Origin: an uncultured Planctomycetaceae bacterium
GTDB taxonomy: Bacteria > Planctomycetota > Planctomycetia > Planctomycetales > Planctomycetaceae
Assembly: GCA_963815195.1 (NCBI GenBank)
Contig: CAWFGE010000015.1
Coordinates: forward strand, 704,001-768,000
Length of the DNA: 64,000 nt
Direction: 5' to 3'
The notes beneath the pieces were generated by a model. That model saw only the letters and a program-made list of their open reading frames with translations, made no database searches and was not told where the DNA came from. The translations under genes and the position numbers were made by a program. Position 1 is the stretch's first letter. Every line of letters begins with the position of its first letter. Shown here in pieces: positions 9,765-52,245 of the stretch.

Positions 9765-12700
9765 ATGCCCAACTTTTCTTTTCAGTTCCACACGCTGCTT
9801 AATGAATTGGACGAACAGGACCAACAGGCGATTTTGGCCGGCGTCTTGTTTTACCCGGAAATCTCTGCGATCGGAAAGAACCAGGCGGCGGTGCGGCGTC
9901 AGCTTGTCCGGCAGATCAAACACATCGTCGGGGAAGGCCCGCCCAAGGATCTCTGGCGGCGGCGGGCTTTGGCGGAACCGCCGGTCGTGCGAACGATTTC
10001 GCTGACGCTTGAACCGCCTCGGAAACAAATCGCCTGGCGGTCGCCGGTGGAGTTGACGTTTCAGGTCGTCCCCTGGCGGCATGCGGAATCTTTTTGGCTG
10101 GCTTATGTCCCGGTTCTGGGGATCGAAGTCTTCGCGGACTCGGAAGCGGAACTCTTGGAACTCGTTCCGCGGCACATCGAGTTTGCCCTCAAGCGAAAAG
10201 GCATGACGGAATCGCTGGCTCCCTTGATCGCGCTGGAGCGGGTGGGGGCGCTCAAGTTGCTGACGATTCAAGAACACATCACGCTGCCGACGCCCAAAGA
10301 GATCGAAAAAGCCGAAGGAGAGCAGAAGCCGAAATCCACGCTCAAGGAAGTCGCCACGCGGATGTCTTCTTTGAAGCTTCCGCCGGCTTACGAAATGGAA
10401 TCGACGTTACAGCAGTTGGCGGAGCTTTTGGGCGGATCTCAGCCGCGAAGCATCCTCCTGGTGGGGCCGTCGGGCGTAGGCAAGACCGCGGCGGTTCAGG
10501 AACTCGTGCGCTCCCGGTCCCAGTTCGGATTGGGGGATAAAGAGTTCTGGACCAGCAGCGGAGCCGCGGTTTGTGGGCGGGACCTCGGGGTTCGGCATGT
10601 GGCAGGAGCGCTGCCGATCCCTCTGCGAAGAAACCAAGCGCCGCAAGAACGTGGTGCTGCATCTGGGATCGCTGTTGGAACTGATGGAAGTCGGGCGCGG
10701 CGGGGGGTGCGGGCAAGGCGTCGCGGACTTTCTCCGCATGCCGATGGACCGCGGGGAGATTGTGATCCTCGTCGAATGCACGCCGGAGCAGCGCGTGGTC
10801 GTCGAACGCGAATCGCCGGGCTTGTTGCGTTCGCTCGCCGAGGTCCGCGTGTTGGAGCCGCCCTTGGAAACGGGGCGAAAGATCTTAAAATCGTCCGCCG
10901 ACGCAAGGGCCGCGCGGAAACAAGCCGCGCTCAAGCCCGATGCCTTGGAACGGCTGGATCGGCTGCACCGCCGATATGCCACGTATTCGGTTTATCCGGG
11001 CCGGCCTTTGCGGTTTTTGGGAAACCTGCAAGAAGACACGCCGGCGGACCACACGATCTCGGCTCAAGATGTGATCGCGGCTTTTTCGCGCGAGACGGGT
11101 TTGCCGCGATCGCTGCTCGATGAATCGCAGCCTCTGGATCTGGACGACCTCCGGGCCTGGTTTTCGGGGCGAGTCTTCGGGCAAGGTCACGCGGTGGATT
11201 TGATTGTCGAATTGATCGCGGCCGTCAAAGCGGGGATGACGCAGCCCGACCGCCCGATCGCCTCGCTGCTCTTTATCGGTCCCACGGGCGTGGGCAAGAC
11301 GGAAATGGCCAAGACGATCGCCGAGTTTTTCTTCGGGGACCGAGAGCGATTGATCCGCATCGACATGAGCGAATACGCCGACCCCTTTGCGGTGGATCGA
11401 CTGATCGGCGGGCGGTTTCAGAAAGAAGGCGTGCTCACGTCGCAAGTTCGCGACCAGCCGTTCGGCGTGGTGCTGCTCGATGAATTTGAAAAAGCCGACC
11501 CCAGCCTGTTCGATTTGCTGCTCCAGGTTCTGGGCGAAGGCCGGCTGACGGATGCCTCCGGCCAACTCGCCGACTTTCGCAATTCGGTGGTAATCATGAC
11601 GTCCAACCTGGGCGTCGAGTCCACCGGCAAAGCGGGATTCGGCTTCCGGGACGATTCGGAAAACCCGCTCTTCCTTCGGCAGCATTTCACCGAGGAAGTC
11701 AAAAAGTTTCTCCGCCCGGAGCTTTACAACCGCATCGACCGCATCGTCGATTTCGCCCCGCTCGATCAAAACACGCTCCGCGGCATCACCCGCCGGCAGC
11801 TTGAGCTTCTCCAAGCGCGCGACGGCATCCAATACCGCGGCGTGGCGTTGTGTGTCGAGGACGGCGTGCTCGATGAATTGGCCGCGAAGGGATTTGATCC
11901 GCGCTACGGCGCGCGGCCGCTCAAGCGGGTTATGGAACGCGAACTCTTGAAACCCTTGGCCGTCGGCATCAACCGCTACACGGGGAATCATCCGCTCGCA
12001 GCCCACATCGATTGGGCCGAGGGCGTTCGGGTTCAGGTCAAAGCCGTCCCCGCCGAGCCCGGCACGCGGGTCAATCGGTTGGGCGTGGCCGCGAACGACA
12101 CCGCGGCCCAATTCGCCAAAGACCTGGCCACGCTGCGCCGCAAGGTGCTGCGGTTGGAAGGCTCCGTGACGACGTTGGAGTTCCAGAACGAACTGTTCCG
12201 CCTGGAGCAACAACGCGGCCAGCGCATCAAACGCAGCCTGCGACCCGACGGGGAACTCGAAGCCCGCTGGAAAGAATTGCACGAACACCTCGCCGCGATG
12301 AGCCGGTGCATCCAGGATGTGACGCATCTCGAGGACGATGTGCTGATGGCGATCTATCAAAACCAGGAAGTCGATCTGACGGATTCCCGCGAGATGTTTG
12401 GGGAGTTGGAATCCCTTTGGCAGGAGGTCCTGTGGTCGGCCTATGCCGCGACGCTCGATCGGAAGACGAGAGATCAAATCACGCTCGTGATTTATGCGGA
12501 AGACACCGCCGCGTTGATCGAACTCGCCGCCGCGTATCGCGCCCTGATCGAAAAGCGAGGCGACCTGGTGCGGTGGATGGGGTTAGTTTCGGCCCAAGGC
12601 CATTCCAAGCCGAAACTGGCGGACGGTCAATCCTGGATCGGAAAGATCAAAGTGAGCGAACCCAGCACGCGGTTGATCGGTCAGTCATTCAATCAGGATT

Positions 12701-13071
12701 GGAAGGCGGCTTTCAAAGCGGCTCCGAAGTGCGTGGGTCTCGGCCTGCGAATCACGGGCAAGTTGGCGTTTCCGCTGTATCATCTGGAGCAGGGCGTGCA
12801 TTTGATCTCGGCCGATAGGCACGGGCACCGGTGTTATGTCGATACGGCCCTCGCGGATTACCCCAAGTATCAACCGCCTTACAATGTGGACCGCAAAGGC
12901 TTTGCCGACGATCAAGTCAAACGCCGAACTTACAACAAGAATGCAAACAAAGTGGAAGACCATTGGCTCGACAAGGAACAGTTTTGGGACGGGGTGGTGC
13001 TCGAGGAACCGCTTATCGAACTCGTGGAAGCCCGCCTTCAACTCGACGCCGACGAGCTACTGGCCGAGTGA
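9765..13071 (+). CDS. Atypical ClpA-like double AAA+ ATPase no.1 with C-terminal release-factor-like domain (apparent +1 indel ~10565)
   Basis: D1 Walker A GPSGVGKT. D2 [49 protein letters not shown]. Removing one C at ~10565 gives TSSGARFVGGTSGFGMW and joins ORFs 9765 and 10573. Confidence 0.85.
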
Positions 13072-13098: not shown

Positions 13099-16000
13099 AT
13101 GGAAGTTTCGGTTCCGATCTTGGTGCTCTCGACACGAAGGCCCGGGGAGAAAACGCCCACGTACATTTTGCGGCCGGTGTTTTTCCCTGCGCCGGAAACG
13201 CGGGATTACAACCTGGGGCGAGGCACCGCCAAATTGGCCGCCAGCTTGAGGAAGCTGCTCAAGCAGTTGGCGGAGGCCGGCAAGCACGAACGCTTTTCCC
13301 AGTACATCTATGCCCCGCCGTTGGAAGGGCAGCGGCTCAAGCTGACGTTGGAACTGAAGCGCTCGACCGAGAAGCCGGTGTTCTACGCGGTCTCGCTCAG
13401 GGCGCTCGATCGCCAGATTGCGTGTTTCCCGATGCTGCCGGGCGTGTGGTTCGAGATCCCGAAGGACGGGAACGAGAGCCTGCACGACCGGGCGACCGCA
13501 GTGCTCACGGAGTATTTCCGCAAATTGGAGCGGGAAGAAGAGACCGTCGCTCCCATTCTTCGCCGGGCTTCGCTGGACGGCAAAGCCTGGCTGACCACGG
13601 TGGAATTTGACGTGGAAACGGCCCCCGATCTCAAGAAGGCATCGTCGCTGTTGTTCGCCGCGTTGTTCGCGGGCGAGTCGATGGACGGGGCGACCGAATT
13701 GGACAACACCGGCCGCGATTTGGATTTGCTGTATCCGGACGACCTGGCCCGCAGCCTCTGCCGGGAACAAGAAGCCGAGGAGCTCACGCGATTGCTCGCC
13801 GCCCGCGACCGCCGGCCGGTGCTCGTGCTCGGTCCGCGGACGGTGGGCAAGACCGCGCTCGTTCACGAAGCGGTCTATCGAAAAGTCCAGCAGCAAACCT
13901 CCCGGTTTCGGAACCGCCGGCATACGTGGCTGTTGTCGCCGCAGCGTTTGATCTCCGGGATGAGCTACGTCGGCCAATGGGAGAACCGCCTGCTCGCGAT
14001 CCTCAAAGAATGCCGGAAAAAAGACCACATCTTGTACTTCGACGATCTGGTGGGGTTGTTCCGCGCGGGAGTCTCGCGGGATTCGGACCTGGCGGTGGCG
14101 CATGTGCTCAAGCCGATTCTGGAACAGCGGCAGGTGCGGATCGTGGGCGAAGCCACGCCCGCCGGGTTCCGCGTGCTGCGGGAACTCGACCGCGGGTTTG
14201 CGGATTTGTTTCACGTCATCTCGCTCCAGGAGCCCGATCAAGAAACGTCTTTGCGAGTGCTGCTCAGCGTGATTCGCCAGTTGGAACGGCGGTCTCGCTG
14301 CCAATTCGATCTGGAAGTGCTGCCGACGGTGATGGATTTGGCCCGGCGGTTTTCGCGGGAGCGGGCGTTTCCCGGACAGCCGGCGTTGATGCTCACGCGG
14401 CTCGCTTCGAGACATCCCGGCACGACGATTACCCGGCAGATCGTGCTCAAGGACTTCGAATCGCAAAGCGGCTTGAAGATCGCCTTTCTCGATCCCGCCG
14501 AGCGCCTCCGCCGGGAGGACATTCTCGCGGGCATCGAGCAGATGATGGTCGGCCAGAAACCCGCGCTGGAAGCCGCCGCCGATGTGATCTCGATTGCCAA
14601 AGCCCGCATCAACGATCCCGAACGGCCGTGGGGCACATTTTTGTTTCTCGGCCCGACCGGCGTGGGCAAGACGCAGTGCGCGAAGGCCATTGCCAATTAT
14701 CTGCTGGGCAGCCCCGACCGCATGATCCGCTTCGACATGAACGAGTTTCTTTCGCCCGGCGATGTGTCGCGGCTGGTGGGGACGCTCGATCAACCGGAAG
14801 GGCTCTTAACCTCGGCCATTCGCCGGCAGCCGTATTCGGTGGTGCTCTTGGACGAAATCGAGAAAGCCCATCCCGCCGTGTTCGATCTGTTGCTGCAGGT
14901 GCTGGGCGAAGGCCGATTGACCGATGCCCTGGGCCGGACCGCCGACTTCCGCAACGCGGTTTTGATTCTCACCTCCAACCTCGGCAGCCAGCAGGCGGAA
15001 AACTCTGTGGGGTTCCAGCCCAGCGAGATGTCCAAGCATCAAATCTACGTGGCGGCGGCGGAAAGATTTTTCCGCCCGGAGTTTTTGAACCGCTTGGATT
15101 TTCTGATTCCCTTCGATCGGCTGACCAAGCCGGAGATTCGCGAGATTTCCCGCCAGGCGGTGGAAGCACTCGGCGAACGGGAAGGGTTTGTGCGGCGGAA
15201 GTGCATTTTGCATCCGGACGATTCGGTGCTCGATTACGTGATCGCGCGGGGATTCGATCCGCGGTGGGGCGCGCGGGGCGTCCGGCGGATGATCGAGAAG
15301 GATTTGATTCGCCCGGTCGCCGCCGCCCTCGCGAAAACGCCGCCCGCCGGACCGACCGTGGTGAGCCTGTGGGCCTGTGACGATTCCATCCAAGTCGATG
15401 CCAGCACGCTGACGGAAATCGATCCGCTGCCCCGCTGCCGAGGCCAGTTTTCGCCGGACGCCTCCGAGCCGACGTTGGAGCGAATCCGCGCTCTCCTCAA
15501 GCGGCTCTTGGAAACCTGCCAGGCTCATCGGCCTTCCGGTCCCATGACGTCCGGCAACATTCGGCCGGAGCAGTTCCATTACCTCGCGATGGTCGAGGCG
15601 ATCAATCACCTGGAAACCCGCTGCCAGGAACTCAAGGAGCATTTGGGGGCCGGCGCGATCCACAACCGGCTCTCGGCGGACAGGGCGCTGCGCGGGGATT
15701 CAAATCTCCGGCCGGCGGGCGGGGCGGACGCATGTCTGGCGAAGTTGGGACACGCCGAGGCGTCGCATCATGCACGAAATGCTGACCGCCGACGACGTCC
15801 ACGATTATCTCCACGAAGTTTCCAGCGGCTCGGCGACTCCATGATCCCGCCGACGCGTTGGAGCCGCTCATCTCGCAACTGGCATTGCTCGACGTCCTGA
15901 CGCCGGCGGACGAGGGTTGGCGGCACGAGCACGTGCTGGCTGTTGTGCGGGGTTTGCAGTCCTCGCCCGTGGCCAGAAATCGCCTGCTCCGGATGTTGCC

Positions 16001-16538
16001 CGAAGCTTTTCAGTTTTCCCATTTCGGCGAAGACGCCCTCGCGGACTTGGGGTTGGAATCGCACGCCGCGCATTGGGATGTGAAAGATTCTCAAGACGCC
16101 GGCCTCGAGCTCTCGGAAGCGGCCCGGAAGCTTATGGCGGAAGTTCGCTGTGATGTGATCGGCTTCGAAGGACTGAATGCGATGCGATTGTTGTCCGGCG
16201 AAGGGGGCACGCACCTGTGCGTGCTGGCATCGGGGCGGTTGATCCCGTTTCAAGTCGAGCTGCGTATTGTTCCCGAAGACGCGACGGCGGATGATGTGAT
16301 TCGGTCCGTGCTGGCGGAGCATCTGGATTGGCTCAAGTCCCGGCGGTCGCAACCGGCCGCCGACAGCGATCCGCTTTTCTCTTTGAAGCCCGCCGTGCGG
16401 ATTTATGATGAGCGGGGATTGATTCTCGATTTTGCCACCGGACAGGCGTTGGAAGAGGTGAACCTGTCCGCTCCGCGGTTGCTCAAGGATTTGATTCTAG
16501 CCCGCCTGCCTTTGCCCGCGGAACTTGTGACAGGTTGA
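13099..16538 (+). CDS. Atypical ClpA-like double AAA+ ATPase no.2 with C-terminal release-factor-like domain (apparent indels ~15646 and ~15839)
   Basis: D1 GPRTVGKT / ILYFDDL. D2 GPTGVGKT / [38 protein letters not shown] 15858-16538 is the frameshifted C-terminus and has the same RF-like motifs as gene no.1. Confidence 0.8.
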
Positions 16539-16544
16539 ACTGCC

Positions 16545-18836
16545 ATGCCGACGCATCGCGTGCCTATTTTGTTGATCCAGGATTCGGAGGGGTTTTGGTC
16601 GGCCCAGCCGGTGGAACCAGACACGGCTTTGGTGGGAACCGGAGCGACCGCCGCCGATGCCCTCGCCCAGATCAAAACGTATCTGGATTGGTCGTACGAT
16701 CGCGATTCATGCAAGGAGATTCCGGACATCCAGGGGCCTACGCTCGCGCGGTTCAAGATTTCTGTGCGGCCGCATTACGTGGAACCGAATCGCGTTTATC
16801 CCTGTGCCGAGTCGATGGAATTGCCCGTGGACTGCGTCCTGGGCAAGCGGTCGGATGGATTGCTCACTTGCGTGGCTCCGATCGTGGGCGTGCGATTCGA
16901 TTACAACGAAAAGGCCGCGTTGGAATCGCTGCTCACGGATGCCGTGCTCTCGCAGCTCGCGGGGAAGACGCCCAGGCAACTCTCGCGGTATCTGCCGCCC
17001 CGGGCGATGGAGATCCGGGAATTGGCGATCCGCGTGAAGCCCCGCATTTGGCGGGACGGGGGCGAAGTTTATCTCCCCACGCTGGAAGAGATCGCCGACC
17101 CCATTGGGGAGAAATCGGTGCGGAAGCGGTTTTCGCGGGCCTGGCTGCGGGACGCGGAACTCGCGGAGCTTCAAAGCCGCTTGACGGAGGAACGCGCGAG
17201 CGTGCTGCTGCTCGGCGTGCGAGGCGTGGGCAAGACGACCTTGCTCGTGGATGCCGTCCGCGACACCGAGCGGTTGCTCTATCGGGCGGCCAAAGCGGAG
17301 GAACACGAGAACGGCCGGCGTTACCGCCATCGGTTCTGGATGACGAGCGCCGCCCGCATCATCGCCGGGATGCGGTACTTGGGCGAATGGGAAGCCCGCT
17401 GTGAGGAGATTCTGTTCGAGCTCTCCGAAATCCAAGGCGTGTTGTGCATCGAGAATCTGCTCGACTTGCTGCGGATCGGCGGCGGCGAAGCGTCGCAAAG
17501 CATCGCGGCGTTTTTGATGCCCTATTTGCAGCAAGGGGAACTCAGGATCGTGGCCGAAGCCACCTTGGACGAGCTGTCCGCGGCGGATCGGTTGTTGCCG
17601 GGCTTTTCGGATCTGTTTCAGAAGCAGCGTGTCGAAGCCCTTTCGCATCGCAGCATGGTCCAAGTGTTGGAGAAGGTGATCGACGCCGCCCAGCAAACAC
17701 ATCGCCGCCCGGCGGAATGCCGGGTCGATGTTCGATTGCCGGAGATCATTTTGCATCTCCACGAACGCTTCTTGCCTTACCAATCCTTTCCCGGCCCGGC
17801 CGTGCAGTTTTTGCGGGATTTGATCAAGGCCGTCTTCAAAGAGGATCGCCCGCGTCTCGAACCGGCCGATGTTTTTCAGGCCTTTGCCCGGCGGACGGGT
17901 GTGCCGGTGCGGTTTTTGCGGGATGATGTTCCCCTCGATTCCGACGAAGTGTTCGCGGAGCTTTCCCGCCAGGTCATCGGCCAGGAGGAAGCGGTGCGGT
18001 CGGTCGTGGAATTGATCGCCACGTTCAAAGCGGGTCTGAACAATCCACGCCGGCCTTTGGGAGTCGAGCTGTTCTGCGGGCCGACGGGGGTGGGAAAAAC
18101 CGAGCTGGCCAAGAAGCTGGCCGAGTTCTGTTTTGGCGAAGGCGAGGATCCCGACCGCTTGTTTCGCTTGGACATGAGCGAATACCAAGGCTACGGCGCG
18201 GGCCAGCGGATTTTGATGCAGCCCGACCGCTCGCCGAGCCGGCTGATTTCGCACATCCGCGAGAAACCGTTCTCCGTGGTGTTGTTGGACGAGATCGAAA
18301 AAGCCGATGCCGAGGTGTTCGACCTGCTGCTGAATCTCTTCGAGGAAGGCCGGCTCACCGATGCCTATGGCCGCACCACGCATTTTCAATCGACGATCGT
18401 GATTATGACGTCGAACCTGGGAGCCGAAAGCGTCTCGGCGTTGGGCTTCAAGCCGGCTTTTGCGCCGGCGTACGAATCGGCCGCGATGCAGTTTTTCCGG
18501 CCGGAGTTTTTCAACCGCATCGACGAGGTGCTCTCGTTCGCGCCGCTTTCGGAAGAATCCGTGCTCGAAATCACCAAAAAAGAACTGGAGGCTCTGAGCC
18601 GGCGCGAGGGGCTCTCTGGCCGGGCGATTCGCTTGGCTTACGATGAGGGATTTTTGAAGGACGTCGCAAAGCGCGGCTACGATGCCCGGTACGGCGCCCG
18701 GCCGCTCAAACGGTTTTTAGAATCCTCCGTGGTCACGCCGATTTCCGAATACCTCGTTTCCCACCCGAATTCGCAGGGAGAGACTCTTCGCTTGCGTTTC
18801 ACCGAGGCCGGTCGCGTCGCCGTGACGCCGACTTAG
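16545..18836 (+). CDS. Atypical ClpA-like double AAA+ ATPase no.3 (no C-terminal extension)
   Basis: Uninterrupted 763 aa ORF. D1 GVRGVGKT. D2 [42 protein letters not shown]. Confidence 0.9.
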
Positions 18837-18861: not shown

Positions 18862-19939
18862 TTAAGCCGCCCCCAGCGACTCCACCACCAGCCGGCCCAT
18901 TTCTTTTGTGCCGATGGACTTTCCACCCGCGGCGATGTCGGGGGTGCGGTGGCCGGCTTTGAGGACCGTTCGAGACCGCGGTTTCGATCGCGGCGGCTTC
19001 TTCTTCCAGGTCCAGCGAATGCCTTAAGAGCATCGCAGTGGCCAGGATCGTCGCAAGCGGGTTGGCGATGCCCTTGCCCGCGATGTCCGGGGCGGAGCCG
19101 TGGATCGGTTCGTAAAGGCCGGGGCCGCTTTCGCCCAGCGACGCTGAGGGCAAAAGCCCCAAGGAACCAGGCAGCATCGAGGCCTCATCGGTGAGGATGT
19201 CGCCGAACATGTTCCCGGTGACGACGACATCGAACGACCTCGGCCGGGAGATCAGGTGCATCGCCATCGCATCCACGAGGACGACTTCGTATTCCAGATC
19301 GGGAAACTCGTCTTTCATCACCCGCGAGGCCACGCTCCGCCACAGCCGCGAGACTTCCAAGACGTTCGCCTTATCGACCGAGGTGACTTTCCCCCGCCGT
19401 TTTCGCGCGGCTTCCGCGGCGAGACGGACCACGCGTTCGATCTCCGGCGTGGAATAGATCATCGTGCTGTAGGCCACTTCGCCTTCCGGGATCGGCCGCC
19501 GGCCCGATTCGCCGAAGTAAATCCCGCCGGTCAGCTCGCGGAAAAACAGAATGTCCACGCCCTCGACGATCTCCCGCTTGAGCGGCGACGCGTCCAGAAG
19601 CTCGGGAAACGGGGCGATCGGCCGCAGGTTGGCGAACAGCTTCAATTCCTTGCGGATGCCCAAGAGTCCCGCTTCCGGGCGGGTCTTGGCGTCGGGGTCG
19701 TCCCACTTCGGCCCGCCGACGGCGCCGAGCAGCACGGCCGCTGAGGATTTGCATTCATCGAGCGTGCGATCGGGCAGCGGGGTGCCGAAGTCGTCGATCG
19801 CATTCCCGCCCATCGGACAGGAAACCGTCTCGAACCGGTGTCCGAACCGGCGGGCGATCGTTTCCAACACCTTTTGAGCCTCGGCCACAATCTCCGGCCC
19901 AATCCCGTCCCCCGGCAACAACGTCAACTTGGCATCCAC
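18862..19939 (-). CDS. leuB: 3-isopropylmalate dehydrogenase (apparent indel ~18968)
   Basis: [47 protein letters not shown] and [12 protein letters not shown]. The corrected C-terminus [11 protein letters not shown]...SLGAA* ends at 18862. Confidence 0.95.
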
Positions 19940-26112: not shown

Positions 26113-26211
26113 GTGTTTTCTTCGTCCTTGTTGCTGGTTGGTTGATTGGGATTGCCGCTCGGCGATGATACAATCGTCTCGGTTTTCGCTTTGCTTTTCT
26201 GGATGTCTTTT

Positions 26212-28156
26212 ATGAAACGCATCTCTTGCTGGCTGCTGTTCTTGGTCCTTTCCGCGTTCCCGGCGCTGGGCATTGCGAAGGATCGGCCGAATGTTGTTTT
26301 GTTTCTCGTCGATGACATGGGCTGGATGGACAGCACGCCCTACGGCTCGAAGTATTACGAGACGCCGAGCATGCAGCGGCTGGCCAAACAGTCGATGCGG
26401 TTCACCGATGCCTACGCGCTGCCGCTCTGCTCGCCGACGCGGGCGTCGATTTTGAGCGGTCAATATTCCTCCCGCCATCGGGTGACCTCCGCGAGCGGCC
26501 ATCGCCCCGCCGCGCCCGCGAATGCGTCGCCTTATCCCGAAAAGGCCCCGCCCAACAAGCGGTTCCTGTATGCCGAGAGCAAGAACTATCTCGATCCAAG
26601 CCTGACGACTCTCGCCGAGGTCTTGCACGAAGCGGGCTACCGCACCGGGCATTTTGGGAAATGGCATCTGGGGTTGAGCCGCGAGCATTGGCCGGACAAG
26701 CACGGCTTCGACGTCGCCTTTCACGCCCAGCCCAGCCCCGGCCCGCCCAGTTATTTTTCGCCTTATGGGGTCTTCAAAGACGGCAACCCCAGCGGCCGGC
26801 ATCACGTCGGCACGATCACCGACGGACCCGACGGGGAATACATCACCGACCGCCTGACGGACGAGGCGATCCAGTTCGTCGAAGCCAACAAGAACCGGCC
26901 GTTCTTTTTGAACTTCTGGCATTACGGAGTTCACGGCCCCTGGGGTCACAAGGAAGAATACACCGCGGAGTTTGCCAAGAAGACCGACCCGCGCGGCCGG
27001 CAGCGGAATCCGATCATGGCGTCGATGCTCAAAAGCGTGGATGAAAGCCTGGGCCGACTGCTCCGCCGGACTCGACCAACTCGGCCTCGCGGAGAACACC
27101 CTGTTCATCTTCTACTCCGACAACGGCGGAAACGTGCACAGCAACACGCCCGACAGCCGGCAGATGCAGAACATCGGACCGAACCATCCGAAATGGGCCT
27201 TCGTGCAGGATTGGAAGAAATGGGCCGGCCCGGAACCGCCCACGAACAACGCTCCGCTCCGCGAAGGCAAGGGCCGGATTTACGAAGGCGGACAGCGCGT
27301 GCCGCTGATGATTCGCTGGCCCGGCAAAATCGAGCCGGGCTCGATCACCAATGCCGTCGCGGGGCCGATCGATCTTTATCCGACGATCCTGGATGCGTTA
27401 GGCATAGCCAAACCCAAGTCGCAGATCATCGATGGGGAATCGCTGCTCCCGGTGCTCACAAACACCGGCGGCCTCAAACGCAAAGCCTACTTCACCTGGT
27501 TTCCGCATTTGATTCCCGCGGTCTCGGTTCGGTGGGGCGATTGGAAACTCATCCGCCGGTTCGAGCCTCATCCCGACTATCCCGAGGTCCGCGAACTCTA
27601 TGATCTCAAAAACGACATCGGCGAAACCCGCAATCTGGCCAAGGAGATGCCGGACAAGGTGAAAGAACTCGACGTTCTCATCGACCAGTTCGTGAAGGAC
27701 ACGGGGGCGCTTTATCCCAAACCGAACCCCGCCTTCGCGGAAACAGACATCACCGCCGGCCTCGTGCCCCGGAAGTGCAAGCTCGCCAAAGCCCGAGGCG
27801 CGATTCGCGTCGTCGGCGAAGGCCGGCTGCCTTTCCTCGGCACCGCGGGCGGGAAACTCAGCGGCCCCGTCACGCTCAAACTCATCGCCCGCAGCACCGC
27901 CGGCGGCGAAGGCCGGCTCCAATGGAAAACCAAGACCCAGGAAAGTTTCCCGAGCACCGGGCAGACCATGCCTTACAAACTCCCCGCCGGCGACGACTGG
28001 CAAGAGATCGAGGTCACGCTCCCGATCCAAGGGGACGCGGGAGTCATCCGCCTTTACCTTCCCGCCGAGGACACCGCCGTGGAGCTTCGGTCGATTCGCT
28101 ACACGGATAAAACCGGCCGCAGCAAAACCTGGGATTTCTCGGGAATCGCGCCCTGA
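26212..28156 (+). CDS. Secreted formylglycine-dependent sulfatase (apparent indel ~27063)
   Basis: Signal peptide, PNVVLFLVDDMG, CSPTRASIL, GYRTGHFGKWHLG, SDNGG and YEGGQRVP. Confidence 0.92.
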
Positions 28157-28972: not shown

Positions 28973-30436
28973 TCAATCCGCTGTTTGCAACCGCCCGGCG
29001 ACGGCGTCCATCGTCGGGCGGTCGGCGGCTTCGCTGGCGAGCATTTCGGCGAGCAGCGGCCGGAACGGGGCGGGCGCTTGGGCGGACAATTCCTCCGCGA
29101 GCGCCTCGCTTTGCAAGTGCACTAAGAGTTGGATGACATTGTTTTCCACAAGCGCCCGCCGCCCGGTGAGCATTTCAAACACAATCAGGCCCAGGGAGAA
29201 CACGTCGCTTTCCGGCGATGCGGCTCCGCCCGTGGCTTGTTCGGGGGACATATAGGCCGGCGTTCCGGTGAGTCCCAAGGCGTTCGGGTCGTTCTCCAAT
29301 AATGTGTCTTCCACATTGAAGGGATATTGATCAATCGTGGTGGTGCGGTTGTCCTCGTACGCGAGTTCGCTTGTTTCAGGCATGGCGGGACCGGTCGCGG
29401 CGCGGTAGGTGCGGGCCAGGCCGAAATCCAGAATCTTGACAAGATCGTTGGGCAGGACGATCACATTGGCCGGCTTCAAATCGCCGTGCACGATATTTTG
29501 CTGATGGGCCGCCGCCATTCCAGAAGCGATCTGGCCCGCGAGCGAACCCACCCGTTTGGCCGGGAGAGGCTGTTTTAGAACTTCGGTCAAATGCTGGCCG
29601 GAGAGCAATTCCATCGCGATGGAGGGCACGCCGTCTTCCTCGTCGACCGAATACACGGTGCAGATGTTGGGATGCGACAGGCGGGCCGCGGACCGGGCTT
29701 CGGCAAGCACGGCTTCGCGGGAGGTGGCGAGTTGGCGTTTGAGGATCTTGATCGCCACGTCGCGTTCGAGCCGCAGGTCCCACGCCGCGAACACGCTCCC
29801 GAACGTGCCGTCGCCGATCCGCCGGCGAATCCGGTAATGCCCCAGCACCTGGCCGGGTTTGAGGACGGCTTCGGGGTCGAGCGTGCCGTCGGCATTGGTC
29901 CACGAAGCCGGGCATAGCCCGCCGGTTTGGAGGGCATCGAGCACGCGGAGCACTTCGGAAGGACTGCGGCCCACGTTCAAGTTGTGGATCACCGCATATT
30001 GCAACACGCCGGCCGGGTCGATCACGAACAGGCCCCGCAGCGCCACCTGTTTGTCGCCGTCCCAAACGCCGAACGCCCGCGCCGCCTGGCCTTTGGGGTC
30101 CGACGCCAACGGGAATTGCAGCGGTCCCAACCCGCCTTCGTCGCGAGGCGTCTCCAGCCATTCCCGGTGCAGGGAAAGCGAATCCACGCTCACGCCCAGA
30201 ATCTGGCAGCCGCGTTTTTGAAAGTCCACGTATTGAGCGCTGAAGGCCACGAGTTCGGTCGGGCACACGAAGGAGAAATCGCGGGGATAAAACAGGAGGA
30301 TCACCCAGTCCCCGGCGAAATCGGACAGCCGGACCGTGCGCGGGCTGGGACTTTTCCAATCGACGCATTCCAGCCCAAAATCCGGTGCCTGATGATTGAC
30401 CACTCCCGCCACCGCCTGTCTCCCCGTGTCCGCCAA
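28973..30436 (-). CDS. 2-Cys peroxiredoxin (AhpC/Prx1)-Ser/Thr protein kinase fusion
   Basis: FYPRDFSFVCPTE, LRGLFVIDP, GRS and LCPASW, then IGDGTFGSV, VAIK, HGDLKPAN, DFGLA and GTPAYMSPEQ, all in one uninterrupted ORF. Confidence 0.88.
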   Translation of the reverse strand: MADTGRQAVAGVVNHQAPDFGLECVDWKSPSPRTVRLSDFAGDWVILLFYPRDFSFVCPTELVAFSAQYVDFQKRGCQILGVSVDSLSLHREWLETPRDEGGLGPLQFPLASDPKGQAARAFGVWDGDKQVALRGLFVIDPAGVLQYAVIHNLNVGRSPSEVLRVLDALQTGGLCPASWTNADGTLDPEAVLKPGQVLGHYRIRRRIGDGTFGSVFAAWDLRLERDVAIKILKRQLATSREAVLAEARSAARLSHPNICTVYSVDEEDGVPSIAMELLSGQHLTEVLKQPLPAKRVGSLAGQIASGMAAAHQQNIVHGDLKPANVIVLPNDLVKILDFGLARTYRAATGPAMPETSELAYEDNRTTTIDQYPFNVEDTLLENDPNALGLTGTPAYMSPEQATGGAASPESDVFSLGLIVFEMLTGRRALVENNVIQLLVHLQSEALAEELSAQAPAPFRPLLAEMLASEAADRPTMDAVAGRLQTAD

Positions 30437-30650
30437 ATGTTAAAAAGGTCCGGCTCCCGGATTTTTCCGTCACTCGATTTTAGCGAGTTTCCGGCCGCGG
30501 TACAGATGTTGGGATCGCAGAATCAGGGCAGAATCTTGAAAGCCAGGGTAAACCGTATCATTCCTTCGCCCGAAGCGCAAATTTAGAAGTTGCGACTTTT
30601 AGCTGCGAAGCGGCGGCTGCAGATCGCCTTGGGCAGTAAGCCCAAGGATC

Positions 30651-35083: not shown

Positions 35084-36477
35084 TCACCCGTCCAAGGCCC
35101 CGCTGTGCCGCTCTTTGGGATCTTCGGGAACGTTCTCCGCATACGCATCCGCGACCTCGCCCTCGCTGACCGCGGCGATTTTGGCGTCGTCATGGAAGAG
35201 CACCAAAAACAGGACCATAATCACCCCCGCAAAAATGGCGCAGAACTGCCAAATCGCGTCCCAGTTGTAGGTGTGGAGCAGTATTTCGCTATCCTGTTTG
35301 TTGGCGTTGACGACGCGCTGCATGATTTGCGCCCCCAAACCGAGCCCGATGCCTTGCGTCATCAGCACCAAAAAGCCCTGGGCCTGTCCGCGAATGTGCC
35401 GGGGGGCCTTCTTATCCACGTAAATCTGTCCCGTCACGAAGAAGAAGTCGTAGCAGATCCCGTGCAGAATAATGCCGAACAGAATCATCCACTTCACGCC
35501 ATCGTCAGCCGCAAGGGAAAACAGACCGTACCGCACTACCCAGGCCAGCATGCCCGCGAACAGCATCCATTTCACGCCCAGCCGGGCAAAAAACAGCGGC
35601 ATCACGAGCATGAAAAAGATTTCGGACATCTGCCCGAAGGACATGTTGAACGCCGGGTCCTGAAAACCCGCATGATTCACGAACACCTGGGCAAAAGCAT
35701 AATACGCGGCGAGCGGAATGCAGATCAAAAGCGAACTCATCATGAACATGAAGAACGACCAGTTCTTCATCAACGCCAGCGAGTCCAGTCCGAGAATATC
35801 GCCAACGGTGGCCTTCTGACCCGCGGACGGTGGCGGCGTGTGGGGCAGGGTGAAGCTGTATACTCCCAACGCGATCGCTGCGCCCCCGGCAATCTAGCAG
35901 CGTGATGGGCCTGTTCGTCCGCGTGCAAAACCCGGCTCACAAGAACATTGGCCACGATCCAGCCGATCGTCCCGAACACGCGAATCAGCGGGAACTGTTT
36001 TTCCGGATCGGTAATGTTGTGAAAGGCCAGCGTGTTCGTCAGCCCCAGCGTCGGAATGAAGCAGAGCATGTGAGCGAGCAAAATGCCAACGAACGGCAAA
36101 TGCGCGGGATTGATCCAGTACTCAAGAGCCTGCTTTTGCGGATCGATGCCTTGGGCTTCCAAGTCCTTCGCGATCGCGGCCCAATTCTCCACAGAGAGGT
36201 CGGCCATCATCGGGGCGAGCAGCAATGCGATGCCGCCCAGCAAGTGCATCGCCCCCAACACGCGTTCGGTGGCGAAATAGCGGTCCGCAATCATCCCTAA
36301 AAAAAACGGCGAGATGATGGCAGCGATCGGTCCCACGGTATAGACCCAGCCGATCGATTCCGCCATGCCCAGGGCGGTCATGTAATTTCCCACGGTCACA
36401 TACCAAGAGCCCCAGATGAAGAACTGCAGGAACATCATCACGGACAGGCGCGGGCCGACGGCGGCGGGTTGGGACAT
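35084..36477 (-). CDS. MFS nucleoside:H+ symporter (NupG/YegT-like; apparent indels ~35895-35912)
   Basis: RLSVMMFLQFFIWGSW, IRVFGTIGW, GQMSE and LHGICYDFFFVTGQIYVD, split over two ORFs. Confidence 0.88.
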
Positions 36478-36754
36478 GGCAGCTTCCTTCGGTTCAATGG
36501 CGGTCGTTCAACGGGTGCAACAGCCGAATTCCCGGTTCGGAAAAACAAGGATTCGCTGCCGTGATGATGCCGATTCCCCGGCCATTGGGCAACCGTACCG
36601 CACCGGAACTCCCGAAAAACCCCGGCGTTTCTGCGATTTCGCCCGACCCGCAGCCGCAACACCCGCCCAACCCCGCGCCGGATTGCATTTGCCTCCGCAG
36701 CCTGCCATCATTTCCCGTGACATTGATAGTTAAACCACGACAACGGAACCGACG

Positions 36755-49081: not shown

Positions 49082-49378
49082 AGGGATGGATCGGCCGCGG
49101 GAGAGGGCGGGGGGACGCAAGTCTCTCCCCACGGACTCTTCCGCGCCGGAGCCGATCCAGCGCCGTTTTTTTCCTGTTTTTCCAGCCCCAACTTTGAGAG
49201 GATCAAAATCAGGCACGCGTCGCCCCGCTACGAATCGTGCGCCCCATCGCTTCAACGATTGAGCCCAGACTTTCGAGCGGGACGATGCTCTTGGGAACCA
49301 ACGAATCACTCCAGATGATGACGCCAAAACGTCTCGGACTATAAGGTTTTCGCCCGCTCCCAAGATCGCGTGCCCTTT
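49082..49378 (+). ncRNA. IS110 bridge RNA (5' stem-loop, target-binding loop, donor-binding loop)
   Basis: Target guides TGCGCCC (49238-44) and AGCCCAG (49262-68). Donor guides CAGATG (49312-17) and CTATAAG (49339-45). Each pair flanks a small hairpin within closing stems. RNA ends are approximate. Confidence 0.85.
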
Positions 49379-49414
49379 TTGATTGTGTTTCACTTTAACA
49401 GGAGACGATCCCCC

Positions 49415-50699
49415 ATGCACTCGAATTTGCTCGACCCCAATGCCTGTGTGCTGATCGGCCTCGATTGGGCCGACCGCGAACATGCCGTCTGCCGGCTGCT
49501 TCCCGACGGCGGAACCGAACACCGGCAACTCGAACACACGCCCGAAGCGATTGCCGACTGGCTCGCCGGCCTGCGGAAGCAATTCCCCGGTCGCCCGATT
49601 CGGATCGCGTTGGAGCAAAGCCGCGGCGCGCTGATGAACGCGCTCCGCCGTTTCGCCGACCTGGAACTCGAACTGTATCCCATCAATCCCAAGCAGCTGG
49701 CCCGCTATCGGGACGCGATTCATCCTTCGGGAGCGAAATCCGATCCAGACGATGCGCAGCTCTTGGCCCGCTTTCTGCAAAACCATCAGGAGCAACTCCT
49801 CCCGTTCGTGGCGGACGATCCCGAAACCCGCCGCCTGGCCGAGTTGTCCGAACTTCGCCGCAAGCTGGTCGATGACCGCAAAACCCTTGTGCAGAAGCTC
49901 GAAGGCACGCTCAAGCTGTATTTTCCGCAACTGCTCGAATGGTGTGCCGGCAAGAGTCGCCAACCCCTGTTGCTCGCCGTGCTTCGCCGCTGGCCGAGCT
50001 TGGGCGATCTTAAGCGGGCTCATCCCAAAACGCTGCGCACGTTCCTCGCCGAGCATGGCCTGCGGAACCCCGACCAGCAAACCGAGTGGATCGACAACGT
50101 CCGCCCCGCCACCCCGTTGACCGAGGATGCCAGTTTGATCGAACCCCGCGCGATGTACGCCCAAAGTCTCGGCCGGCAAATCGAGGAACTGAACGAGGCC
50201 ATTGCCAAATTCGAGAAGCAACTGGACGAGGCGACCACCGCGCATCCCGACCACGAACTGTTCCGCTCGCTGCCCGGTGCCGGCGACGTCCTCACGCCGC
50301 GACTCATCGTGGCGATGGGCTCCGACCGGGACCGCTACCAAGACGCCGGGGACGTGCAATCCAAAAGCGGCATCGCCCCGATCACCAAGCAAAGCGGGAA
50401 GACCCGGCTCGTGTTGTCGCGAATCGCCTGCCCCAAATTTCTCCGGCAGACATTCCACGAGTTCGCCGACCAGGCCCGCCGCTGGAGCGATTGGTCCCGA
50501 GCGTTCTATCAAATGAAACGCGCAGGCCGGCATGAGCCACCACGCCGCGGTCCGCGCCTTGGCCTTCAAATGGATTCGCATCATCTTTCGGATGTGGCAA
50601 ACCGGCACCCCTTACTCGGAAATGAAGTACCAGGAACAACTCACAATCAGAAACAGCCCCGTCTGGAATTTATTGGAAACAACAACAGAAACCACCTGA
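49415..50699 (+). CDS. IS110 family transposase/recombinase (apparent indel ~50525)
   Basis: RBS AGGAGA, DEDD residues (GLDW, ALEQ, KSDPDDA), SLPGAG and APITKQSGK (catalytic Ser region). Corrected C-terminus HHAAVRALAFKWIRIIFRMW. Confidence 0.92.
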
Positions 50700-50727
50700 A
50701 ACCCACTTGAAAAAACCTCAGATGTCT

Positions 50728-50938: not shown

Positions 50939-52217
50939 TCAACCGTTCCCCATCCGTTCCCGCACCAACGCCAGGGCTTCCTCGTGTGTGTGGATTTCGC
51001 CGTTGAGTTGGGCGTCGCGGACGGTTTCCAGAAGGTCTTTGAACTCGGGGCCCGGCTCGAGGCCCAGGTCGATCAAGTCCTTGCCGGTGATGAGCGGCGG
51101 GGGGTTCAGTTCCTCGGGCGGGGTGTTTCGAAGGTATTCTTCGCAGAAGATCACCGGCCCCAGATCGAGGTCTTTGGTGATGCGCTCGACCCGCATGAGC
51201 TTCAAGAGGTCCACGGTCAACCGCTGGGCCAGGAGCCTCTTGAGTCGGCAGAGCGGAAGCTGCGGCGCATCGTCCAACGCCCGCTGATGATCCAACAGCC
51301 AGGCGATATCGTCGGTTTCCTGATTGGACAGCCGCCAACGCTGGCCCAGTTCGGCGGCGGTTTCCGCGAACTTGACTTGATTCGGCAGCGCATGCCAGAG
51401 CACGGCGGCCGCGAGTTCAAAACTCGGGGCCTGAAGGAGATGCAACATGTGCAGCGTCCGCTGCCATTCCTCCGCGGGAGCTTCGTCCGCCGATTTGGGC
51501 AAGATGGGCCTTAGTTCCGGGAGGATGATCTCCAAGAGGCCCGCCTGCTGGGTCAACTGCATGCCCCGGGCGCGGTGCTCGTTGGTGAGCATCTTTCGCA
51601 GGCTCTTGCGTGATCCGCTCGGCACTCACGACGGTGAGTTGATCCGCCATCTCGCGGACGGCCGACGCGGTGATGGGGTCCAGTTCGAAATCGAGATTGG
51701 CGGCGAAGCGGACGGCCCGGAGCATTCGCAGCTTGTCTTCGCGGACGCGGTCGTGCGGATCGCCGATGGCGCGGACGATGCCCGCCCCCAGGTCGCGCTC
51801 GCCGCCGACGTAATCGAGCACCTGCTGAGCCAGGGGATCGAAGAACATGCCGTTGATGGTGAAGTCCCGCCGTTTGGCGTCTTCCTCGGGGGTGGCGAAG
51901 GTGACGGACTCGGGCCGCCGGCCGTCGAGGTACGGACCTTCGGTGCGGAAGGTGGCGACTTCCACATCCGCCACGCCCCGCGGACCGCGGACGACGATTA
52001 CCCCGAAGCTCGCTCCGACGGCGAGAGTCCGGCGGTGGCCGAAGATTTGACGGACTTCCTCGGGCCGGGCGTCGGTGGCGACGTCATAATCCTTGGGGAC
52101 CCGGCCCAAGAGATAGTCCCGCACGCACCCGCCCGCCCACAGCGCCTGATGTCCCGCCTGCTTCAGGCGGCTCACCACTTCGCCGGCAAACTCGCGATTG
52201 CGGTCGGTTGGGGGCAT
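50939..52217 (-). CDS. CCA tRNA nucleotidyltransferase / poly(A) polymerase family (apparent indel ~51601)
   Basis: GGCVRD..LG..PKDYDVAT, EVATFR, RRDFTING, EDKLRMLRAVRF, SAERI and ITGKDL. Confidence 0.92.
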
Positions 52218-52245
52218 CGCGGCAACTCCTCCAAAATCTCACATT

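Follow-up and report, generated by a model that had tools for sequence, protein, structure and literature searches.

A 64,000-nucleotide stretch of the genome of an uncultured Planctomycetaceae bacterium (GenBank assembly GCA_963815195.1, contig CAWFGE010000015.1, positions 704,001 to 768,000; hereafter the window) contains three Clp-type double-AAA+ ATPase genes, which we call A, B and C, lying head to tail on the + strand. We found that an open reading frame (ORF) at 15858-16538 is the C-terminal end of gene B in a conserved A-B-C Clp/Hsp100 operon, and that the tail of gene B is a derivative of a class-I release factor (RF). Gene A carries a sister tail, and both tails are RF2-derived modules composed of domains 2/4 and, probably, part of domain 1.

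Gene A (9765-13071) has one frame break at about 10555-10560 and ends in its RF-derived tail at 12034-13068. Gene B (13099-16538) encodes about 1145 amino acids when read through two breaks, arranged as an N-domain, two AAA modules (D1 and D2) and the tail. Gene C (16545-18836) is intact, has a predicted HicB-like N-domain and lacks a tail. The ORF at 15858-16538 is 226 amino acids long, opens with TTG and contains no GGQ. The initial annotation had listed RF-like motifs in it, and all were located in the translation: HVLAVVRG (15930-15953) with RNRLLRML, then VIGFEGLNAMRLLSGEGGTHLCV, which holds E-x-G-x-H at 16200-16214, and PAVRIYDERGLILDFATG, which holds RIY (16398) and DFATG (16428-16442).

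The same annotation proposed that this ORF belongs to the ATPase starting at 13099, and comparison with homologues bears this out. When four homologues were aligned to the window with tblastn, their matches fell into three collinear segments, one in each of frames 1, 2 and 3, at 13099-15696/15723, 15683-15838 and 15807/15843-16532. The middle piece, some 48 codons in frame 2 (15695-15838), is helical, is 60-73% identical to homologues P0001-P0003 and aligns with RF2 domain 1 in hmmsearch. A search for longer relatives returned four proteins among 8000 candidates, three of which are single proteins of 1141-1145 amino acids with the ATPase N-terminal to the tail; they are 53-59% identical to the ORF. 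Full-length homologues of B (P0002-P0004) share 72-79% identity over the ATPase and 52-56% over the last of the three segments, and in a genome of the same family the tail sits inside a 1170-amino-acid frame with a C homologue next downstream. The continuous full-length homologues and the in-frame tails of orthologues rule out a separate, unrelated gene at this position.

Four kinds of comparison identify the tail as RF-derived. A profile built from 114 B tails was searched against all PDB chains with hmmsearch, and of the 17 rows obtained the first 14 were all RF2 or RF1 (best E 2.8e-7); the A tail profile likewise placed RF1 or RF2 in the top 28 of 37 rows (best E 1.1e-4). A shallow profile of nine tails found no RF in the PDB, in contrast to the 114-sequence profile. 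Profile-profile alignment with HHalign, of the two tails with each other and with RFs, gave probabilities of 91.5% for the B tail and RFs, 96.5% for the A tail and RFs, and 96.5% for the B tail and the A tail. Against RFs stripped of domain 3 these rose to 93.6% (B) and 98.0% (A), and against isolated RF domain 3 they were 0.2% and 0.3%; four reversed and eight block-shuffled controls stayed at or below 2.6%. An AlphaFold model of 15840-16535 (mean predicted local distance difference test score, pLDDT, 91.7) retrieved a release factor in every row shown by Foldseek (best E 3.1e-7). In VIA it matched RF1/RF2 at Z 11.5, 11.2, 11.2 and 11.1 (best match: root-mean-square deviation (rmsd) 3.5, 141 residues aligned), followed by PrfH at 8.9 and 8.3 and the next match at 5.8. 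Profile scores favoured RF2, with 16-26 bits against 0-12 bits for RF1, and the distal helices of RF2 domain 1 align with the tail profiles in hmmsearch, the coiled-coil matches being weak on their own. The RF likeness claimed from motifs is therefore upheld by sequence-profile and structural methods alike. Automatic annotation would miss the tail, as had been foreseen, because scans of the single window sequence against Pfam and NCBIfam returned no match; among the 114 family members, Pfam PCRF was found in only two, at E 0.012. A complex prediction pairing tail A with tail B scored 0.00, and we draw no reading from it either way.

We next consider what the tails kept and what they lost. Across the 114 B tails, which are about 25% identical, G111, E121, G123, H125, R187, D197 and R199 are near-invariant; the A tail keeps the corresponding Y, E, G, H, R, R, Y and D, as well as basic RRG/RRxYD motifs. 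These conserved core residues show the signature of selection on both tails and, with the in-frame tails of orthologues, support the earlier suggestion that the domain is retained because it is functional. The domain 2/4 superdomain of B spans 15918-16532, lacks domain 3 and the SPF/PxT loop, and in the AlphaFold model a helix at 16287-16349 (model residues 150-170) spans the domain 3 deletion. In RFs, 128-133 residues separate E-x-G-x-H from R-x-Y, compared with 117-122 in a single-gene Clp-RF2 fusion described below and medians of 60 in B and 46 in A. In a set of 82 B tails (two sequences are included twice), GGQ occurs by chance in four, always elsewhere than the domain 3 position; the stop-codon loop is about 8 residues shorter, PxT is found in 0 of 82 and an SPF-like motif in 1 of 82, and in alignment with RFs the GG tip of alpha5 is not conserved. 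To judge from these sequences, RF domain 3 with its GGQ is deleted from both tails. The reported loss of GGQ thus stands but was understated, since the whole of domain 3 and the stop-codon loop are gone as well. Because domain 3 and the SPF/PxT loop are deleted, the module is unable to hydrolyse peptidyl-tRNA or to read stop codons as RF1/RF2 do, and a functional tail cannot mean termination.

The architecture is conserved well beyond this genome. A scan of GTDB with the B-specific D1 region yielded 281 relatives among 304 stretches, of which 80 loci were kept; by their titles these come chiefly from Planctomycetota and Acidobacteriota (Blastocatellia), plus some metagenome-assembled genomes labelled Clostridia. 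B could be counted in 71 of the 80 loci, the other nine being cut by contig ends or split ahead of the anchor motif, and 70 of the 71 carry the tail in frame (328-409 amino acids). The A tail (348-436 amino acids) is present in all 48 countable A genes, and C stops 21-45 amino acids past the core in 40 of 40 orthologues. Upstream of B, 53 loci have A, 12 lack it although the flank exceeds 3 kb, and 15 are too short to judge; downstream, 50 have C, 15 lack it and 15 are too short. Both the subunit-specific motifs and the gene order are conserved across phyla. The tail profile recovers 454 clusters at 50% identity, cultured carriers include Gemmata algarum and Zavarzinella formosa, and database labels of the relatives read ClpA, ClpC or AAA family ATPase.

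In a D2 tree (FastTree, 42 sequences), A, B, C and the single-gene Clp-RF fusion form one clade apart from ClpB/ClpC (support 0.85), within which A and B are sisters (support 0.99). The initial annotation had taken the two tails as independently diverged. Their divergence holds, but an independent gain does not, given the 96.5% HHalign match between the tails and the sister relationship of A and B. Because the tails are homologous and their ATPases are sisters, the simplest reading is that one RF2 fusion was duplicated and then diverged, with domain 3 lost in A and B and the whole tail lost in C; the A and B tails would then be paralogous.

The single-gene fusion is a ClpA-like ATPase joined to a whole RF2-like module elsewhere in the same genome (L010:7754-10835, G000:C23, - strand), and it too is split by a frameshift. 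Its RF part matches PCRF at E 1.8e-15 and covers positions 4-353 of the 353 in the prfB model, with a domain 3 that lacks GGQ. We found it in this genome and in two of five others searched (orthologues in G383 and G194). Such fusions, which are uncharacterised and combine Pfam ClpB_D2-small with PCRF, share the ATPase clade of A, B and C and carry the RF module in the same position; they differ in keeping the GGQ-less domain 3 (HHalign 95.3%) and in having a basic loop of full length where SPF would be. Unlike A, B and C, the one in this genome has no HicB-like N-domain that we could see. The single-gene fusion is likely closer to the ancestral fusion. As a lead only, the ESM Atlas holds a cluster of 62 with the ClpB_D2-small and PCRF architecture (score 0.81). 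The genome, 8.87 Mb in 25 contigs, also encodes a normal RF1, a normal RF2 and an ArfB-like gene with GGQ. Two more AAA_2-family ATPases lie in it, in frames of 629 and 321 amino acids (L150, G000:C15:322977-323495, and G000:C11:81698-82078).

The two frame breaks in gene B had been placed at about 15646 and 15839 and described as single-base insertions. Frameshift-aware alignment to four homologues set the first, a +1 shift, at 15682, 15691, 15691 and 15697. It therefore falls at 15683-15697, at or beside a GGGG run and some 40-50 nucleotides downstream of its proposed position, because the homologues keep aligning in frame 1 through ...GAIHNRLSADRAL; it is probably an assembly error. The second was correctly positioned, with tblastn and the frameshift-aware alignment putting it at 15836-15842. 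Each break amounts to a net +1 as described, although two alignments scored the second as +1 and two as -2. Programmed frameshifting is unsupported, as the reading frame is unbroken in the closest homologues and in 70 of 71 complete orthologues.

If the breaks in A and B were real, the locus in this organism (though not the family) would be a decaying pseudogene cluster and the tail ORF a remnant. In keeping with this, three breaks fall within 9 kb where about 0.85 would be expected at the genome-wide 0.09 per kb, the trio's tail was not found in three genomes of the same genus with a single-protein query, and the breaks are uncovered by reads, three DNA runs giving no coverage of 15533-15839. 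Against decay, frame switches affect 6 of 62 genes of this genome that could be aligned to outside proteins, compared with 1 of 82 in the loci of other genomes, and unrelated genes of the window are split in the same way across two frames: a sulfatase (26146-28153; profile positions 1-222, then 224-301), a nucleoside symporter (35087-36507), a poly(A)-polymerase/CCA family gene (50942-52238) and a cytochrome P450 (22180-23815). leuB also ends early, near 18974, at position 321 of a 348-position profile, and ClpB-like and ClpC-like ORFs elsewhere in the genome are likewise truncated. The homology path through gene B contains no in-frame nonsense codon, and of the invariant core residues only R199 is changed (here A). 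We conclude that gene B is very probably intact in this genome and that both breaks are assembly errors; real decay is kept as a slim chance because the three breaks exceed expectation and the reads do not span them. The split or shortened unrelated genes of the window mark the assembly as prone to indels, so other frameshift findings in this genome call for caution.

The ATPase portions of the trio are unusual in their own right. In gene B, D1 occupies 13681-14420, with Walker A kept and YFDD rather than FIDE at Walker B, and D2 with its D2-small region occupies 14430-15330 (Pfam AAA_2, E 5e-45; ClpB_D2-small, E 2e-9). In all three proteins, both modules have an invariant Walker A. The D1 Walker B positions read LHLGNL in A, YFDDL in B and CVENL in C, and the arginine finger is lost; the D1 pore loop retains an aromatic residue and has gained an invariant Trp (GMSYVGQW in B). 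In D2 the DE of Walker B, the NR finger and the GAR sensor are intact, and the GYVG pore loop is deleted in all three subunits alike. A ClpP-docking-type loop is present, as VGF in D2 of B: the aligned GF is conserved at 87-100% in A, B and C, and the pattern (I/L/V)GF is found in 60 of 67 B, 28 of 46 A and 32 of 34 C sequences. Conservation percentages for gene C reach at most 97, the window's own C row being out of frame (1 of 36 rows). In controls, the loop was present in ClpC-like and absent in ClpB-like sequences.

The trio thus resembles ClpA/ClpC in having two AAA modules, no long middle domain (the Walker A motifs are about 270 amino acids apart and the ClpB-type middle domain is absent), an intact D2 and the xGF docking-type loop. 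It differs from them in the putative HicB-like N-domain in place of Clp repeats, the lost D1 Walker B glutamate and arginine finger, the D2 GYVG deletion, the C-terminal tails of 330-430 amino acids and the presence of three distinct paralogues per operon. ClpB, which has a long coiled-coil middle domain and no ClpP loop, is the opposite on both counts, and the ClpA and ClpB equivalog scores fall far under their cut-offs (314 against 993 and 334 against 1232 bits). To our knowledge, characterised Clp/Hsp100 rings are homo-hexamers that find their substrates via N-domains and adaptors. Given motifs that are invariant within each subunit and a constant gene order, A, B and C may instead form a heteromeric ring.

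The N-domains gave no sequence match to Clp_N, to any other Pfam family or to the PDB. A model of the gene C N-domain (16545-17060; pLDDT 93.2) had HicB antitoxins or HicB-like proteins in its top seven VIA rows (best Z 8.7, rmsd 2.4, 80 residues aligned), and in Foldseek the best match was at E 0.26, with nothing at E<=0.001. HHalign linked the N-domains of A and B at 85.6% and of A and C at 96.9%, and those of B and C at only 6%. A HicB-like fold is thus predicted at the N-terminus of all three ATPases, at fold level only: by model in C and by profile in A (9765-10330) and B (13099-13680), where it takes the place of the Clp repeat domain and is reached through the A and C profiles. As both folds resemble double-stranded RNA-binding domains, and PrfH domain 3 appeared at Z 4.9 among the VIA matches of the C model, we considered whether this domain stands in for the lost domain 3; HHalign gave at most 0.3%, which lends the idea no sequence support.

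Among characterised proteins, the B tail is closest to RF1/RF2 (PrfA and PrfB; PCRF PF03462 plus RF-1 PF00472), sharing the domain 2/4 fold, E-x-G-x-H, R-x-Y, D-x-R-T-G and, ahead of them, putative domain 1 helices. It differs in being fused behind a double-AAA+ ATPase, in lacking the GGQ domain 3 and the SPF/PxT loop, and in falling under the Pfam and NCBIfam cut-offs. PrfH (RFH), of the RtcB2-PrfH rescue system, is likewise a re-purposed RF whose domain 2/4 no longer reads stop codons, and in VIA it follows RF1/RF2 (Z 8.9, 8.3), yet it is a mirror image: PrfH keeps GGQ and has no domain 1 (PMC6514570, PMC9304027), whereas the B tail has probable domain 1 helices, no domain 3 and no adjacent rtcB. 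The domain 2/4 part of PrfH is described as shifted, making no mRNA contact and binding rRNA and S12 (PMC9304027). Dom34/Pelota and the inactive baeRF-1 proteins have an unrelated archaeo-eukaryotic RF fold, are not fused to Clp and offer an analogy only, being catalytically dead RF paralogues proposed or shown to work on stalled ribosomes (PMC6514570). The available portion of that survey by Burroughs and Aravind contains no occurrence of 'clp', and it is built around the catalytic domain that the A and B tails lack (PMC6514570). We found no description of a Clp-RF tail fusion in the full-text literature searched, subscription journals and bioRxiv supplements being outside its reach.

We propose, at a probability of roughly 0.45, that the trio is a heteromeric motor working with ClpP, and that its RF-derived arm directs it to stalled ribosomes. 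In this scheme A, B and C would assemble into a ring in which D1 binds nucleotide and does not hydrolyse it, D2 hydrolyses ATP, and the conserved xGF loop docks the ring on ClpP. The RF body would serve as a targeting module that, whatever the codon, enters the factor-binding or A site of ribosomes that are stalled or have an empty A site, comparable to the re-use of PrfH for rRNA. At the factor-binding site, RF domain 1 points outward from the ribosome, so a ring joined to its N-terminus would have space there; the coiled coil would keep the ring outside the ribosome. The motor would then remodel or degrade a target on the stalled complex, be it the nascent chain, a jammed factor or a ribosomal protein. 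Myxococcus xanthus MXAN_4823-4825 make up a single operon encoding three Clp ATPases (1149, 1127 and 836 amino acids; PMC11423568) and, by size, order and annotation only, are candidate orthologues of A, B and C. In a chloramphenicol study they are induced at log2 fold changes of 3.57, 2.67 and 2.61 at 8 h and of 1.47, 2.17 and 1.92 in adapted cells, compared with 1.19 for the ClpC MXAN_4832 (PMC6617876).

Several observations weigh against this proposal. With GYVG missing from D2 in all three subunits, ordinary threading may be weak. Of the loci informative for each neighbour (65 in both cases), 12 have B without an adjacent A and 15 have it without an adjacent C. The chloramphenicol treatment raised 625 M. 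xanthus genes at 8 h, and general proteotoxic stress may explain the induction of MXAN_4823-4825, as the authors assumed (PMC6617876). The RF loops that contact mRNA are gone, and the residues that survive may do no more than maintain the fold. The RF body of B is acidic, with a median charge of -8 and -11 in the window, compared with -9 to +1 in RFs from which domain 3 is removed. Among 632 clustered neighbour ORFs we found no conserved fourth gene, and these together with Pfam scans of the 80 nearest gave no recurring translation, rtcB or clpP gene near the trio.

Some of the same evidence would suit an RF module exapted off the ribosome as a structural or regulatory domain, acting in heteromer assembly, auto-inhibition or the binding of an unrelated substrate or adaptor. 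The tails have lost every known RF functional loop yet keep core residues, the A and B tails are highly divergent from each other, the B tail is acidic, and neighbour scans show no translation genes nearby. We consider this rather unlikely, as what appears to be the whole domain 1-2-4 arrangement survives in both paralogues and also in a third fusion, which is encoded by a single gene and has a degenerate domain 3, the A tail retains its basic RRG/RRxYD motifs, and chloramphenicol induces the candidate orthologue operon (PMC6617876).

The spread and surroundings of the trio bear on another possibility, that the RF module is a bait or decoy for RF-binding proteins (RF3, PrmC, ArfA/BrfA-type factors, RF-directed toxins or phage inhibitors) that feeds them to, or activates, the ATPase-ClpP machine as a stress or defence sensor, with the HicB-like N-domains perhaps catching HicA-type RNases. 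A patchy spread over several phyla (within the phylum, a six-row profile detected it in 8 of 401 genomes), variable flanks, an antitoxin-like N-domain fold and a tail that is a non-catalytic copy of a conflict target would all fit. The HicB match, however, is at fold level only (Z 8.7) with no Pfam match, the operon has no effector gene, and PADLOC matched only 6 of the 150 nearest neighbours, two of them via generic domains, and the trio itself through its AAA domain alone. No copy was found among 72,556 plasmid records at E 1e-20 or among 60 candidate stretches of IMG/VR viral contigs. We regard the bait reading as improbable, and a mobile-element or defence-island location is unsupported by these scans.

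The 80 nearest neighbours are mostly metabolic, no hicA recurs near the trio (632 neighbour ORFs clustered; 80 nearest in Pfam), and now and then small insertions separate the ATPase genes. The small genes found between them in some genomes (L070 and L097 in the A-B gap; L120, L070, L051 and L058 in the operon) comprise a four-helix 23S_rRNA_IVP family (two loci), a DUF433-DUF5615 pair, a CopG-type antitoxin, a Uma2 nuclease and a DNA methylase. In five Acidobacteriota loci (L060, L087, L093, L102, L122) an opposite-strand gene of about 1670 amino acids lies directly 3' of B and parts it from C. Elsewhere in the window, one ORF at 28976-30439 (- strand) combines an AhpC/TSA redoxin domain with a Ser/Thr protein kinase domain in Pfam, and 49322-50707 encodes an IS110-family transposase (DEDD_Tnp_IS110 and Transposase_20).

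A three-paralogue Clp set with antitoxin-like N-domains, a silenced D1 and an RF-derived arm is an undescribed architecture in the literature searched. Taking the stalled-ribosome proposal further, one might tentatively see in it a heteromeric three-subunit Clp/Hsp100 motor whose gutted RF2 docking arm delivers ATP-driven remodelling and proteolysis by ClpP to ribosomes that have stalled. It would be a bacterial branch of ribosome-associated quality control, functionally parallel to Cdc48/p97 in eukaryotes, induced by stalling antibiotics and present in M. xanthus, a model open to genetics. The question is directly testable because the family is large, occurs in cultured strains and is probably present in M. 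xanthus. If the arm docks on ribosomes, it would connect arrested translation to proteolysis in bacteria in a new way and put the RF decoding domain to a new use.

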